Shown: positions 6,577 to 12,452, counted from the first letter of the stretch. The stretch: DNA of 64,000 bases from Candidatus Zambryskiibacteriota bacterium (GCA_026394775.1 JAPLZY010000008.1:53367-117366), one strand, 5' to 3'. Notes: generated by a model not told the origin, from the letters alone. Numbers and translations are program-made.

Positions 6577-7132
6577 AGCTTCATTCGGTATGAAAAAAAC
6601 ATTAGATTTAAAAAGCGGCGTTTGAGATAACAAGCTTAATTGATTGTTACCTGGACTCCGCTTTGTGCGGATTTTTTGTTTCTCGGCCTGGCTCGATATT
6701 TGACAACTTAATTCCGCCACTTACTACTGACCAATGATGGGTCTTTTCGGGTGGGTAGGCGGAGCAATACAATGTTACTAACATCGAATAGATATTAGAT
6801 AACAGAGTATGAATGTAAGAAATATAATTGTGGTTTTTAAATTTCCTAATGGGAAATTTAAGAGCATATGGTGGATGCCTAGACTCTAAAGGGCGATGAA
6901 AGACGCGGCATGGTGGCGATACGTTTCGGGGAGGTACCTAGCAACCTTTGATCCGGAAATCTCTGAATGGGGGAACCCAACAGCTTTTGCTGTTACTCTA
7001 CAAATTATGTAGAGCGCACACCCAGGGAAGTAAAACATTTCAGTACCTGGAGGAAAAGAAAACAATGTTCGTAAGAACGACATTTCGTTAGTAGCGGCGA
7101 GCGAACACGAATGAGCCCAAACCGGCACATCA

Positions 7133-7244
7133 CATTGAGCACGGGGAAAATTTTAAATTTAAAATTCTAAATTTCAAAACAAAATGCATGTGCATCCGTT
7201 TTAAAATTTGAAATTAGAAATTTGAAATTCATCCCGCTCTTAGC
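7133..7244 (+). repeat. AT-rich imperfect palindrome inserted in 23S domain I (helix 9-type IVS/expansion)
   Basis: gaaaattttaaatttaaaattctaaatttcaaaac ... gttttaaaatttgaaattagaaatttgaaattc forms a long hairpin. It is closed by ccggcacatcac/gtgatgtgccgg. Confidence 0.55.
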
Positions 7245-8957
7245 GTGATGTGCCGGGGTTGTAAGGTAACAACGTCAAATTTATTTGAGAGAAGTTAAAA
7301 AATAGTATGTTAATGGAATGCACTGGAAAGTGCGACCCTAGAGGGTAATAGTCCCGTACATGAAAATATACTATCTTCTTTGTTGTTATTCTTGAGTACC
7401 TCGAGACATGAATAGCTCGGGGGAATCTGCCGGTACTAACCGGTAAGGCTAAATACTTTTAGAGATCGATAGTGAACTAGTACCGTGAGGGAAAGGTGAA
7501 AAGTAGTCCGAGAGGACGGTGAAATAGACCTGAAACCATATGCTTACAAGGAGTCGGAGCGGGCAGCAATGTCCCGTCACGGCGTGCCTATTGAAGAATG
7601 AGCCAACGAGTTGATGGATGCAGCAAGGCTAAGTCCTTTACCGGACGGAGTCGTAGGGAAACCGAGTGTGAATAGCGCGTTAAGTTGTATGCATCAGACC
7701 CGAAGCCAGAGCGAGCTTACCATGAGCAGGGTGAACTTTGTCGAAAGATGAAGGGAGGCCCGAACAGTTTAGCCGTGCAATACTATCTGATGACTTGTGG
7801 TAAGAAGTGAAAAGCTAATCGAGCCTGGTAATAGCTGGTTCTCTCCGAAATAGCTTTTGGGCTAGCGTTAGGTGATCCCTTCCGGGGTAGAGCACTGGAA
7901 GGACTCAACAGGGAGCAATCTCGTGAGTCCTATCAAACTCCGAATACGGAAGATTACAGCCTAGCAGTTAGACGGTGGGGGCTAAGCTCCATACGTCAAA
8001 AGGGAAACAGCCCTGATCTCTATTTAAGGTCCCTAAATCTATGTTAAGTACACTTAAGGTGGTGGATTTTCTTTGACACTGAGGAGGTTGGCTTAGAAGC
8101 AGCCATCCTTTAAAGATAGCGTAACAGCTCACTCAGTAAGAGAATCTGCGCCGCAAATAATCGGGGTTAAACATAGTACCGAAACTGAGGGTTTGTATTT
8201 GTTTTTACAAGTACAAGCGGTAGGAGAGTATTCGTATCTGCGCTGAAGCCAAAGGGGTGACCCATGGTGGAGCGATGCGAAGTAAGAATGTTGGCACAAG
8301 TAACCACAATGCAGGTGAAATCCCTGCACGCCGAAAGACTAAGGTTTCCTGTTCAATGTTAATCAGAGCAGGGTTAGTCGGGCCTAAGGAAATGGAGAGA
8401 TCCGCATCCGATGGACATGAGGTTAATATTCCTCAACTTTTATGTAATGCGATGGAAGGACGGAGTGCTGTATGTAGGGCTCATTATTGGATTTGAGTCA
8501 CTGTCGTGAGAATGTGTCCCAGGTAAATCCGGGCACTCACTTTAATGTGGTATTCGAGCGGTTGCGAAACCTTGCGATTCGTCAAGAGGGATTCTACAAA
8601 GCGCGCTTCCAAGAAAAGTTTCTAAGCTTAAGTACATAAGAACCGTACCGTAAACCGACACAGGTAGTCAGGTCGAGTAGACCAAGGCGAACGAGTGAGA
8701 GATCCCCAAGGAACTCGGCAAAAAAGCAGCCGTAACTTCGGAATAAGGCTTGCCCACTTTAATGTGGGCCGCAGCTAAAGTATTTCTGGCAACTGTTTAT
8801 CAAAAACACAGCTCCCTGCGAACTCGTAAGAGGATGTATAGGGGGTGACACCTGACCAATGCCAGAAGGTCAAATATGGGAGCTAAATGTCGCAAGACGC
8901 TAGGTTGACTGTATAAGCCCTGGTGAATGTCGGCCGTAACTATAACGGTCCTAAGGT

Positions 8958-9386
8958 TGTACGAACAAAGATTTATTTTTGCTCGTACAAGGACTGGGAC
9001 TGTTGTAGTTCTGCAGACGCAATAAAGGGGTATTTAACCCCTTTGTTCCAACGTCGCTTCTCGGAATTCAAAGAGAATACTCTCTCAATTCACTCGAAGC
9101 TAGTTGTAATAAAATGCAAATGCATTTTGATAAACTAAATAAAAAATAATCATTACAATCATTCAAAGCTGCCTCTCTCTGTAGTAATACAGAACAGAGT
9201 CCAAAAACACATGGCTATATGCTGGGAAGTCGTTTAATTTGAACGATGATCAGCAGGGAAGTCGGAAATTAATTTCAAATTTAAAATTTTAAATTTAAAA
9301 TTCGTTTTTGATCCCTCAGAGACCACACGCCGTGCACCCTACTTTATTGAGGGTGAAGATATGGTCCTAGGTAAAAAGAAACCTAA
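8958..9386 (+). mobile_element. group I intron 1 in 23S (domain IV, near E. coli position ~1925), ORF-less
   Basis: Exon GGTCCTAAGGT|...|AGCGAAATTCCTTGTCGGGTAAGTTCCGAC. R-like ccctcagagacca and S-like gtgaagatatggtcc elements are present. An AT-rich palindrome aatttaaaattttaaatt sits where a HEG would be. Confidence 0.7.
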
Positions 9387-9955
9387 AGCGAAATTCCTTG
9401 TCGGGTAAGTTCCGACGCGCACGAATGGTGTAATGACTGGAAAACTGTCTCGGGGATTTGCTCGGTGAAAATACAATACCGGTGAAGATGCCGGTTACCT
9501 GCAGTTAGACGAAAAGACCCCAGGAGCTTTACTGCATCTTGATATTGAGAATATGACTTGCATGCGTAGCATAGTGGTGAGGATTTGAAGGGCACTCCCG
9601 GGTAGCCTGGATCCGTCAGTGAAATAGCCATCTTGTTTGTTATATTTTCTAACCTCGGCGGAAAAAACGACGAGAGACAGTGTCTGGTGGGCAGTTTTAG
9701 TGGGGCGCTATCCTCCTAAAAAGTAACGGAGGAGTTTATTAAGGTCAGCTAGCCGTGAATGGAAACCATGGCGATAGTGTAATGGCACAAGCTGGCTTAA
9801 CTGTGAGACGTACATGTCAAACAGATGCGAAAGCAGAACATAGTGAACCGACGGTCCGTGTTAGAGGCGGCCGGAGATTATCGGATAAAAGCTACCCTGG
9901 GGATAACAGGCTGGTTGTGCCTAAGCGTCCAAAGCGACGGCACAGTTCGGCACCT

Positions 9956-10801: not shown

Positions 10802-10896
10802 CGATGTCGGCTCATCTTATCCTGGGGGTGGAGAAGCTCCCAAGGGTTTGGCTGTTCGCCAATTAAAAAGATACGCGAGCTGGGTTCAGACCGTGG

Positions 10897-11234
10897 AGAC
10901 GAGAAACTTCGGTTTCAAGTCTCCACAATCTGAATCCTTAGAGGTTTTTTCGTTTGAAAAGGAAAAAGAAATGTAAGAAATTTCTTAAATATAAAAAGAG
11001 CTCGCCTCATCGGCGAGTCCGTCGAAGAGACGGAATAGGAACAATCACATCACGGCGGCATTTTATGGAAACATAAAATAGAGAAGCTGGGTATTTCGGT
11101 AGAATCCATTTCTAAGTGGACAATGCCGAGGGTGACTAATAATTTAGTTACTTGTAGAGACTACATACCAGCCATCCATGCAAATGGATGAGCGCATAGT
11201 CCGAACCTTCGAGTAATCGGAGTAACATAAGCGT
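10897..11234 (+). mobile_element. group I intron 3 in 23S at the I-CreI-type site (near E. coli 2593), ORF-less
   Basis: Exon GACCGTG|...|AGACAGGTTGGTCTCCTATCT (E. coli CGTCGTGAGACAGTTCGG). R-like cttgtagagactaca and S-like gcgcatagtccgaacc are present. Boundaries are ±3 nt. Confidence 0.65.
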
Positions 11235-11295
11235 GAGACAGGTTGGTCTCCTATCTACTGCAGGCGTTGATTCTTGAGAAGATTTGCCCCTAGTA

Positions 11296-12105
11296 ATTGA
11301 ATTGCTACTTCAAGGAGTAATCCTTGATGAAATAGTGGCTAATAACGGTGAAGTCTTAAGTGTATTCTAGTCTGTTGATAACTATTCTTGTGACGGTCCG
11401 TCATGAGTAGTACAATTTGTTTAGTGATAAACAAGCTTGAAGACCAGAAATAATTAAGATAATACCGTGGGAAGTCGATCTATTATTGATAGAGCATATA
11501 TGCAGGATTTCTCGATGGCGATGGAAGCTTAATGCTTCAAATTAAGAAAAGAGCAGATGGAAAAAGTAAAATTCGTTTTATGGCAACCATTTGTTTCTAT
11601 CAAGATACTCGTCACGAAAAAGAATTGATTTGGATTCAGAAAGTTCTAGGTATCGGATACATCTCGCGCAGAAATGACGGGATGTCTGAGATTAGAATTA
11701 ATGGATTTAAAACAGTTAAAGAAATTCTGGAAGACTTGATACCATATATCAGGTTTAAAAGGATTCAAGCAAAAAGTTTGCTTGAATCGTGCACAATTTT
11801 GTCTTCGACAAAATTTAATATGCTCAATCGTGAACAGCTAACTAAACTTGTTAATCTTGTCTTAGTGATTCAGAATGAAAATTACGTCACTAAGAAGAAG
11901 AAAACACGAAGTGAATTGTTACAGATAATAGGTTTGACCCCGTAACGACTTGTTTGAGTAATGTCAAACAGATTTATGTAGTACTGGAAAGTCTTGTGTA
12001 CTGAAACATGAGACAGGGCTACATTTATAATACGCCAACACCCTCAACCTTTTAAGGTCGGGTGAAGATATAGTCTGTGCTCCTGGTAACAGGGGAATAA
12101 AACGA
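11296..12105 (+). mobile_element. group I intron 4 in 23S, inserted within the sarcin-ricin loop sequence (CTAGTA|CGAGAGGACC)
   Basis: Exon ...gcccctagta|...|cgagaggaccggggtgaactgacc. The downstream exon aligns base for base with E. coli 2658-2760. S-like ggtgaagatatagtctg is present near the 3' end. Confidence 0.65.
11458..11945 (+). pseudogene. degenerate I-CreI-like single-motif LAGLIDADG homing endonuclease (start codon lost, -1 frameshift before the motif)
   Basis: Frame 1 reads DNTVGSRSIIDRAY (compare MDNTAGSLTQL of the intact HEG), but its ATG is replaced by taaGAT. The frame shifts at about 11500-11504 into AGFLDGDGSLMLQIKKRADG...GIGYISRR..., which shows the I-CreI fold pattern. Confidence 0.6.
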
Positions 12106-12452
12106 CGAGAGGACCGGGGTGAACTGACCTCTGGTGTATCTGCTGTCTTGCCAAAGGCATCGCAGAGTAGCTAAGTTGGGAAATGATAAACGCTGAAAGC
12201 ATCTAAGCGTGAAGCATACTTCAAGATAAGGAATCGTTTGAGACCCGTAAGAGATGATTACGTGATAGGCACTCGGTGTACGCACAGCAATGTGTTGAGC
12301 CAAGGTGTACTAATTAGTCGATTCTTATTAGGAAATTTACGAACCACTCCACTTCGGTGTGGAGGTTATACAAAATACATTCATGCTCTGTTATCTGATA
12401 TTAATTTGTCAGAGTTTTTTGGCATAAAAAAGAAAATAAATAATTGAATCTT

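Follow-up and report, generated by a model that had tools for sequence, protein, structure and literature searches.

Can a 23S rRNA gene that is interrupted four times in conserved core sequence still yield a continuous rRNA, and what are the elements that interrupt it? The question is raised by a 64,000-nucleotide stretch of DNA (the window; GCA_026394775.1, JAPLZY010000008.1:53367-117366) from a Candidatus Zambryskiibacteriota bacterium, in which an original prediction had placed, at 6850-12340, a 23S rRNA gene that carries four group I introns. Rfam, blastn, and the RNA pairings described below bear this out. The locus reads as the single 23S rRNA gene of a bacterium of the candidate phyla radiation (CPR)/Patescibacteria near Ca. 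Zambryskibacteria, with introns at L1931, L2500, L2593, and L2656 (an L number gives the Escherichia coli 23S position that an insert follows). The four inserts are very probably group I introns that are removed from the mature rRNA. We infer splicing, and likewise homing, from the exon/intron map, the pairings and their covariation, the states of the open reading frames (ORFs), and the presence or absence of the introns among relatives. Earlier surveys of CPR genomes reportedly met introns of the same kind.

Map of the interrupted 23S rRNA gene

E. coli rrlB served as the reference for exon numbering and was compared by blastn with window positions 6700-12800. Five collinear blocks cover E. 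coli positions 12-2884, with the last match ending at 12314. This alignment, together with the exact positions of conserved junction motifs, delimits all four introns (Table 1). The Rfam LSU_rRNA_bacteria match begins at 6848, and a 5S rRNA gene follows at 12615-12722, both on the plus strand; because the Rfam model cannot span the inserts, its match is squeezed into 6848-10013. Exons 2, 3, and 4 have the same lengths as in E. coli (569, 93, and 63 nt). Of the gene's length of about 5.49 kb, the introns make up 2,422 nt, in line with the first estimate of about 2.4 kb of intron in 5.5 kb.

The first three insertion points agree with those predicted, and the fourth had to be moved. It had been set at CTAGTA^CGAGAGG (^ marks the splice site), and the sequence leaves a 1-nt ambiguity there, a single A. 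Group I introns have U before the intron and G at its end, a rule that favors CTAGT^ACGAG, one base further left, so we place the site at CTAGT^ACGAGAGG (L2656). The other boundaries of introns 2 and 4 are fixed by a relative, L058 (LNFM01043218.1), which shares 96% identity with the window over exon 2, since its L2500 and L2656 sites are uninterrupted and their sequences equal the predicted exon joins. The empty L2500 site of this type reads ...GTTCGGCACCT^CGATGTCGGCTC.... L058 keeps a 322-nt version of intron 3 and the 3' end of intron 1.

Group I cores and guide sequences

The conserved J6/7-P7-P3' and J8/7-P7' segments were placed in the inserts by the Rfam alignments, as were P3, P4-P6, R, P8, S, and P9, and group I structures from P1 to P10 could be drawn with evolutionary support. 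The R-like and S-like elements predicted for each insert are present in all four, as tcagagacc and gatatggtcc in intron 1, gtagagact and gatatagtcc in intron 2, gtagagact and gcgcatagtcc in intron 3, and gtaacgact and gatatagtct in intron 4. The cores have helices P3 to P9, the P3/P7 pseudoknot, a bulged base in P7, and the G-C pair that binds guanosine. P7 reads G[A]GACC/GGTCC in intron 1, G[A]GACT/AGTCC in introns 2 and 3, and A[C]GACT/AGTCT in intron 4. It covaries between introns, with GACC/GGTC in intron 1 and GACT/AGTC in introns 2 to 4, and its closing pair is G-C in intron 2 and A-U in intron 4. Between P7 and P3', introns 2 and 4 have the hairpins P7.1 and P7.2, which introns 1 and 3 do not have. 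This hairpin pair is a hallmark of IA-type group I introns, and introns 2 and 4 carry the extra helices of that subgroup.

Every intron has a guide sequence that is complementary to the exon junction and puts a G opposite the last exon U (U·G wobble). P10 comprises 3 bp in intron 1 (AGC/GCU), 6 bp in intron 2 (CGAUGU/ACAUCG), and 4 bp in intron 3 (CGUG/CACG). The guides of introns 1 and 3 sit 150-210 nt past the splice site, beyond additional hairpins. For these two introns, the hairpin just after the 5' splice site was also tried as P1. It pairs the splice-site U with A, and it was dropped because the G-bearing guides at 9167-9174 and 11051-11058 lie downstream and are conserved in relatives. 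The guide of intron 3 is kept in 8 of the 9 L2593 introns of relatives. Intron 4 has homologues in L002, L007, L012, and L013, and all five L2656 introns keep the guide and a covarying P2.

The structures of introns 1 and 2 were measured in family alignments, with slid 3' partners as controls. For intron 2, with ten L2500 introns and a hand-drawn structure, 98.4% of the cells are paired (35-43% when slid), with 17 compensatory pairs and covariation in P2, P5, P7.1, P7.2, P8, and P9; its P7.1/P7.2 hairpins are predicted with z = -3.4. A metagenome scan with the core motif of intron 1 gave 114 matches, many of which are L1931 introns built like intron 1. In an alignment of 14 of these, 91.4% of the cells are paired (39-46% when slid) with 27 compensatory pairs, and the observed pairing was equaled in 0 of 500 shuffles. 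Covariation was found in P2, P4, P5, P8, and P9. A candidate GGACU/AGUCC helix in this family is 86% paired one column off register, with almost no covariation.

With these elements, the gene would be transcribed into one precursor of about 5.5 kb in which each intron would adopt the group I core fold. The guide would pair with the end of the upstream exon (P1, with the U·G wobble) and the start of the downstream exon (P10). An external guanosine would attack the 5' splice site, and the freed exon would then attack the 3' splice site past the terminal nucleotide of the intron, leaving an uninterrupted 23S rRNA about 3.07 kb long.

Intron 3 begins with a 30-nt hairpin (10895-10924), GGAGAC...GTCTCC, that copies the stem of helix 93 (GAGAC...GTCTC, 11236-11251), which starts four bases into exon 4. 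It may mimic the exon and influence folding, or it may be left over from an old duplication.

A family of L1931 introns that end in A

Introns 2, 3, and 4 end in G. Intron 1 ends in ...GGTCC-TAGGTaaaaagaaACCTA-A^AGCGAAATTCC, where the A directly follows the P9 hairpin. Moving the boundaries to gain a terminal G was tried, and no shift fits the invariant exon sequence. A splice site after U1926, with an exon/intron helix that contains a U·G pair, was also rejected, as no 3' exon then restores AAGGUAGCG. Among the distinct members of the short-tail L1931 subfamily, the terminal base is A in 22 of 26 and G in 4 of 26, and endonuclease-bearing members of the L1931 subfamily end in A too. Intron 1 of L058 has the same terminal A, with a P8 that has diverged through compensatory changes. 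The guanosine-binding pair of P7 is unchanged in the A-terminated family. We suggest tentatively that intron 1 may belong to a widespread L1931 subfamily, mostly from CPR-like uncultured bacteria, whose 3' terminus is normally A and not the supposedly universal G (omega-G).

Alternatively, the terminal A could mark an intron whose second splicing step is impaired or atypical, so that its removal would be slow, in need of a cofactor, or partial. Such a defect would be compatible with the explanation given above for introns 2 to 4, and it would account for an A at 9386 that no boundary shift turns into a G, next to a P7 guanosine-binding pair that looks canonical, with nothing obvious to compensate. 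We regard it as unlikely, however, because A is the majority base in a widespread and conserved subfamily that includes ORF-bearing members, and is found in L058 as well; conservation in a single-copy essential gene argues for removal that is efficient enough. Counting in favor of such a defect, a paper of Raghavan et al. from 2007 by its title reportedly describes two self-splicing introns in the 23S rRNA of Coxiella, one of which is without the canonical omega-G, and the title of a 1999 paper on Simkania is said to announce an unspliced L1931 intron. The Coxiella intron without a terminal G reportedly lies at L1917 and is a single case, whereas the A-terminated intron of the window lies at L1931 and is of the majority type in a large family.

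A further pairing was noticed in the L1931 family. The exon segment at E. coli 1920-1927 (3' strand of helix 69; 8946-8953) can pair with the conserved intron motif UGGGACNN (8995-9002). The pairing occupies columns 1-8 and 62-69 of the family alignment and has two covarying pairs (C-G to U-A and G·U to C-G). Because it crosses P1, this helix would amount to a pseudoknotted or an alternative contact between exon and intron.

Endonuclease genes in different states

The original prediction had seen stages of a homing cycle side by side, with an intact homing endonuclease gene in intron 2, a gene with a lost start and a frameshift in intron 4, and nothing in introns 1 and 3. The intron 2 gene lies in L6, with its first codons overlapping P5'/P4' and its stop codon overlapping P6'/J6-7. 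Its product matches positions 2-168 of the 168 in the LAGLIDADG_2 profile (PF03161; E = 1.3e-40) and, over residues 16-190, I-SceI (PDB 1R7M; E = 5.6e-14), and it has the motifs LLGDGYI and WFMDDGS of the two-motif monomeric type. The ORF is intact, with an ATG start, in 10 of 10 genomes (the window and nine relatives). The pairwise dN/dS across these genomes has a median of 0.14 (range, 0.08-0.33), which indicates that the protein is under purifying selection. The first part of the prediction is thereby upheld. By cutting L2500 alleles that have no intron, the I-SceI-type endonuclease would let the intron spread through homing, and the protein may also serve as a maturase.

The ORF of intron 4 matches LAGLIDADG_1 (PF00961, the single-motif homodimeric type; E = 2.6e-10). 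Repaired, its product matches I-MsoI, I-CvuI, and I-CreI (PDB 1M5X, 5A74, and 1BP7) with E values of 4e-26 to 1e-10, the lowest being that of I-MsoI. Intact homologues in L007 (166 codons) and L012 (164 codons) have no ATG and must begin at a GTG that directly follows a TAA; the window keeps the same TAA ... GTG, with the GTG at 11467. The predicted frameshift is real, and the start is not lost. A 1-nt deletion lies within 11494-11507, in an Ile codon just before the motif (GCA TAT AT-GCA GGA TTT CTC GAT GGC). The motif-bearing frame opens only past a TAG at 11490-11492, so the motif is unreachable from the GTG, and the frame does not run intact from there through the LAGLIDADG helix. There is an additional deletion of 4 codons relative to L007. 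Four contigs, assembled independently and taken from two studies, share exactly this frameshift, so it is not an assembly error. The gene appears to have been inactivated recently by the 1-nt deletion. The joined exons at this site, the putative target of the repaired enzyme, read CCCCTAGT^ACGAGAGGACC.

The enzyme might still be made, through a noncanonical start (ATA at 11496) or ribosomal frameshifting, and the gene would then not be a pseudogene. About 146 codons are indeed open past the frameshift, up to the C terminus of the homologues, and are 71% identical to the L007 protein. But the one in-frame approach to the LAGLIDADG motif is stopped by the TAG, the first ATG (11532) comes after the catalytic motif, and with a start at the ATA most of the first helix, which forms the dimer interface, would be missing; the 4-codon deletion counts against it as well. 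We therefore consider continued production of the enzyme very improbable and keep to a recently inactivated gene.

The two intron ORFs start alike (AATACCGYGGGAAGT). Protein homology was considered and rejected for this likeness, which reflects a shared P4'/P6 RNA segment; the proteins belong to different Pfam families. I-SceI belongs to L2449 of yeast mitochondrial rRNA, and I-CreI-type enzymes belong to L2593. Their relatives in the window sit at L2500 and L2656, the copy in intron 4 being frameshifted, and because of these positions their targets must differ from those of I-SceI and I-CreI.

Introns 1 and 3 have no ORF, as predicted, and would be ORF-less ribozymes. tblastn searches with the endonucleases of related L1931 and L2593 introns found no endonuclease remnant in either one. 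The matches obtained were considered as candidate remnants and set aside, being short and lying mostly where related ORFs overlap the ribozyme core.

L058 is without introns 2 and 4 and has introns 1 and 3. Among close relatives, then, polymorphism affects precisely the two introns that have an ORF, and the homing-cycle reading gains support from this.

Splicing or retention

Several points weigh against four spliced group I introns. The Rfam search for Intron_gpI that had been proposed as a check (RF00028; search space, 6.5 kb) matches all four inserts, with E values of 1.4e-10, 7.8e-10, 1.6e-4, and 2.3e-3 for introns 1 to 4, which are still significant for a search of this size; each of the four scores (Table 1), however, stays under the curated gathering threshold of 50 bits. 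The ORFs and large loop inserts lower these scores. The terminal base of intron 1 is A in place of the canonical G. The P1 of intron 4 has merely 4-6 bp and its P10 is essentially absent (1 bp). P1 and P10 are invariant within the families, so that they are backed by complementarity and conservation, without covariation. Finally, the case for splicing is made from DNA sequence.

This last point also leaves room for inserts that are not spliced but are kept as expansion segments or are excised without ligation, in the manner of RNase III-type intervening sequences (IVSs), which would give a fragmented 23S rRNA. The same gene does carry an IVS-like hairpin insertion in domain I (7120-7304; z = -8.6), and both kinds of insertion are reported in CPR rRNA genes in the catalogue of Tsurumaki et al. 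(PMC11270868). Against this, the four inserts lie in conserved core sequence, within single-stranded or tertiary regions that are the most conserved and are critical for function (the H69/H70 junction, the peptidyl-transferase ring, H93, and the sarcin-ricin loop). All have full ribozyme cores with guides that align both exons, and they are without the end-to-end stem typical of IVSs. We give retention or fragmentation little credence, and group I introns that are spliced out remain by far the preferred explanation.

Relatives and distribution

A search with the intron 2 protein over contigs from one genome per species gave 13 loci. Nine of them are in Parcubacteria metagenome-assembled genomes (MAGs; Ca. 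Zambryskibacteria, Nomurabacteria, and Campbellbacteria), with proteins 79-86% identical, all in 23S rRNA genes at L2500; the L2500 introns in these nine public MAGs are 80-86% identical to intron 2. One of the 13 loci is in an archaeal MAG. Judged by similarity, MAGs of Ca. Zambryskibacteria, Nomurabacteria, and Campbellbacteria are the closest relatives. The relatives have introns in varied combinations at L1917, L1923, L1931, L1951, L2262, L2449, L2500, L2504, L2593, L2604, and L2656, and all boundary-resolved introns of these mapped relatives end in G. No locus fetched among the relatives is identical to the window in its four-intron combination and sequence.

The segment 9392-12214 is matched by eight contigs, each assembled independently and drawn from at least two studies; six match with 100% identity and two with 99.5-99.7%. 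Although public data contain related strains of both kinds, those with introns 2 and 4 and those without, which might be assembled into a chimera or mis-joined, these eight contigs and the collinear, complete exon blocks make an assembly artefact a negligible concern.

L013, a Ca. Aenigmatarchaeota MAG, has at 923-2603 an archaeal (DPANN) 23S rRNA gene with introns at L2504, L2593, and L2656. The last of these begins with AAAATATTGCTACTT, like intron 4 of the window, and has the P2/P3/P4 segment in common with it. The likeness suggests an exchange of introns between CPR bacteria and DPANN archaea. In L007, a Parcubacteria MAG, the L1931 and L2593 introns (4807-5029 and 6563-7140) open with the same 14 nt, CCAGCACTTATTTT.

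Other features of the window

The insertion in domain I of the 23S rRNA gene replaces E. coli 271-286 with about 185 AT-rich nucleotides. It folds as one long, near-perfect hairpin (7118-7262; -57 kcal/mol), has no ribozyme core, and was not found in the relatives. It resembles an RNase III-type IVS or an expansion segment and is the only insertion that fits the description of an IVS. Part of it (7148-7230) is a 7-nt periodic repeat, AAATTTN, which recurs in L6 of intron 1 (9270-9303) and at 30948-30974 (17 matches, with 3.1 expected).

The 16S rRNA gene lies at 22448 to about 25390 on the same strand, about 10 kb downstream of 23S-5S, which makes the rRNA operon unlinked and unusual in order. 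It is interrupted three times. The first insert, about 860 nt at E. coli position ~516 (22977-23837), has a weak group I match at 23703-23830 (27.8 bits). It also holds a LAGLIDADG_2 gene that is broken into two overlapping ORFs (23096-23491 and 23329-23685) and is the second endonuclease gene with a frameshift. The second, about 115 nt, lies near E. coli 1140-1175. The third, about 400 nt after E. coli position ~1398, has a group II D1-D4 match at 25082-25167 (36.7 bits). The first gene past the 5S rRNA gene (12794-14179) encodes a 461-amino-acid protein with a von Willebrand factor A domain (E = 4.4e-26) and is unrelated to the introns.

Table 1. Features of the 23S rRNA gene and its introns (window positions; Ec, E. 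coli position; ^, splice site; a hyphen within a guide separates the parts that pair with the two exons)
Feature	Position	Strand	Remarks
23S rRNA gene with four introns	6848-12334	+	Rfam start, blastn; 3' end approximate
Exon 1	6848-8957	+	Ec 1-1931; blastn and junction motifs; holds non-intron hairpin insertion 7120-7304
Intron 1	8958-9386	+	L1931, 429 nt, no ORF; Intron_gpI 49.6 bits
Intron 1 5' hairpin	8958-8989	+	
Intron 1 guide AGCU-GCCU (AGCTGCCT)	9167-9174		Pairs AGGU^AGC; P1 AGGU/GCCU (9171-9174)
Intron 1 P3-P4	9210-9225	+	
Intron 1 R and P3'	9316-9334	+	
Intron 1 S	9355-9367	+	
Intron 1 P9	9368-9385	+	
Intron 1 last base	9386	+	A
Exon 2	9387-9955	+	Ec 1932-2500; blastn and junction motifs
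Intron 2	9956-10801	+	L2500, 846 nt; Intron_gpI 47.1 bits; empty site in L058
Intron 2 guide ACAUCG-GGGUGCC	9981-9993		Pairs GGCACCU^CGAUGU; P1 GGCACCU/GGGUGCC (9987-9993)
Intron 2 P3-P4	10021-10037	+	
Intron 2 homing endonuclease gene	10085-10663	+	L6; 192 aa, LAGLIDADG_2, I-SceI-like, intact
Intron 2 R	10664-10676	+	
Intron 2 P7.1	10677-10694	+	Compensatory changes
Intron 2 P7.2	10699-10715	+	Compensatory changes
Intron 2 P3'	10723-10729	+	
Intron 2 P8	10731-10753	+	
Intron 2 S	10755-10767	+	
Intron 2 P9	10773-10786	+	
Intron 2 terminal G	10801	+	
Exon 3	10802-10894	+	Ec 2501-2593; blastn and junction motifs
Intron 3	10895-11231	+	L2593 (I-CreI site), 337 nt, no ORF; Intron_gpI 29.3 bits
Intron 3 5' hairpin	10895-10924	+	
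Intron 3 guide CACG-GCGG	11051-11058		Pairs CCGU^CGUG; P1 CCGU/GCGG (11055-11058)
Intron 3 P3-P4	11086-11100	+	
Intron 3 R	11152-11172	+	
Intron 3 P8	11174-11189	+	
Intron 3 S	11190-11202	+	
Intron 3 P9	11208-11221	+	
Intron 3 terminal G	11231	+	
Exon 4	11232-11294	+	Ec 2594-2656, 63 nt; blastn and junction motifs
Intron 4	11295-12104	+	L2656 (sarcin-ricin loop), 810 nt; Intron_gpI 25.5 bits; empty site in L058
Intron 4 guide GCUA	11304-11307 (within 11302-11310)		Pairs UAGU; P1 UAGU/GCUA (11304-11307)
Intron 4 P2	11310-11327	+	Covarying in relatives
Intron 4 P3-P4	11335-11350	+	
Intron 4 putative endonuclease pseudogene	11467-11945	+	LAGLIDADG_1, I-MsoI/I-CreI-like, frameshifted
Intron 4 R	11938-11950	+	
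Intron 4 P7.1	11951-11970	+	Plus longer second hairpin
Intron 4 P3'	12033-12039	+	
Intron 4 P8	12040-12063	+	
Intron 4 S	12064-12076	+	
Intron 4 P9	12081-12094	+	
Intron 4 terminal G	12104	+	
Exon 5	12105 to ~12334	+	Ec 2657 to end; blastn and junction motifs

Comparison with described systems

CPR 23S rRNA genes rich in introns were already catalogued in 2024, and the window is a further instance and no new kind. In that study, Tsurumaki et al. (J Bacteriol) analyzed 348 CPR 23S rRNA genes and reported insertions in 82% of them; a single rRNA gene (16S or 23S) had as many as 16, and of the insertions in 23S genes, 45% are matched by the Rfam group I model (PMC11270868). LAGLIDADG_1 genes have hot spots at 1917, 1931, 1952, 2593, 2604, and 2657, and one such CPR enzyme was shown to cleave its site (PMC11270868). 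The original prediction had stated that genes of this type are known from CPR bacteria, and this paper describes them. The host clade and the gene are the same as in the window, the hot spots named there at 1931, 2593, and 2657 are the same, and both mix ORF-less and LAGLIDADG-encoding introns. The catalogue leaves splice boundaries and guides undefined, whereas they are mapped here, and position 2500 is unmentioned in the text consulted (PMC11270868).

Haugen et al. (2007) described L1917, L1931, and L2593 introns in Synechococcus sp. C9 and S. lividus and L1931 introns in Thermotoga (PMC1995217). Those at L1931 and L2593 likewise belong to group I and hold LAGLIDADG genes of the single-motif type, and in both systems ORFs extend from a peripheral loop into the core of the ribozyme; L1931 introns that lack a conventional P2, and P7.1/P7.2 in some introns, are further shared traits (PMC1995217). 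In the window, by contrast, the L1931 and L2593 introns are ORF-less, two more sites are occupied, and P7.1/P7.2 belong to the L2500 and L2656 introns and are absent from the L2593 intron. The Coxiella 23S rRNA gene also has several selfish elements in one bacterial 23S gene, and its introns are spliced from the precursor (PMC4990558).

The locus is a fully mapped case of selfish ribozymes and endonucleases filling the single rRNA operon of a bacterium with a reduced genome, for which exact junctions, guide sequences, and a natural intron-minus comparator are available. A putatively active element, one that appears freshly inactivated, and two ORF-less elements stand together, and the strain-level polymorphism fits a homing cycle. 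In practice, such introns break rRNA gene callers, as seen in the forced Rfam match. The A-terminated L1931 family is the sole element here that may merit the attention of ribozyme specialists, as it offers many natural sequences with which to probe the need for a terminal G in the second splicing step. Should efficient splicing hold for its members, they would form a naturally occurring family in which recognition of the 3' splice site needs no omega-G; the alternatives would be that splicing is slow on purpose or depends on a protein.

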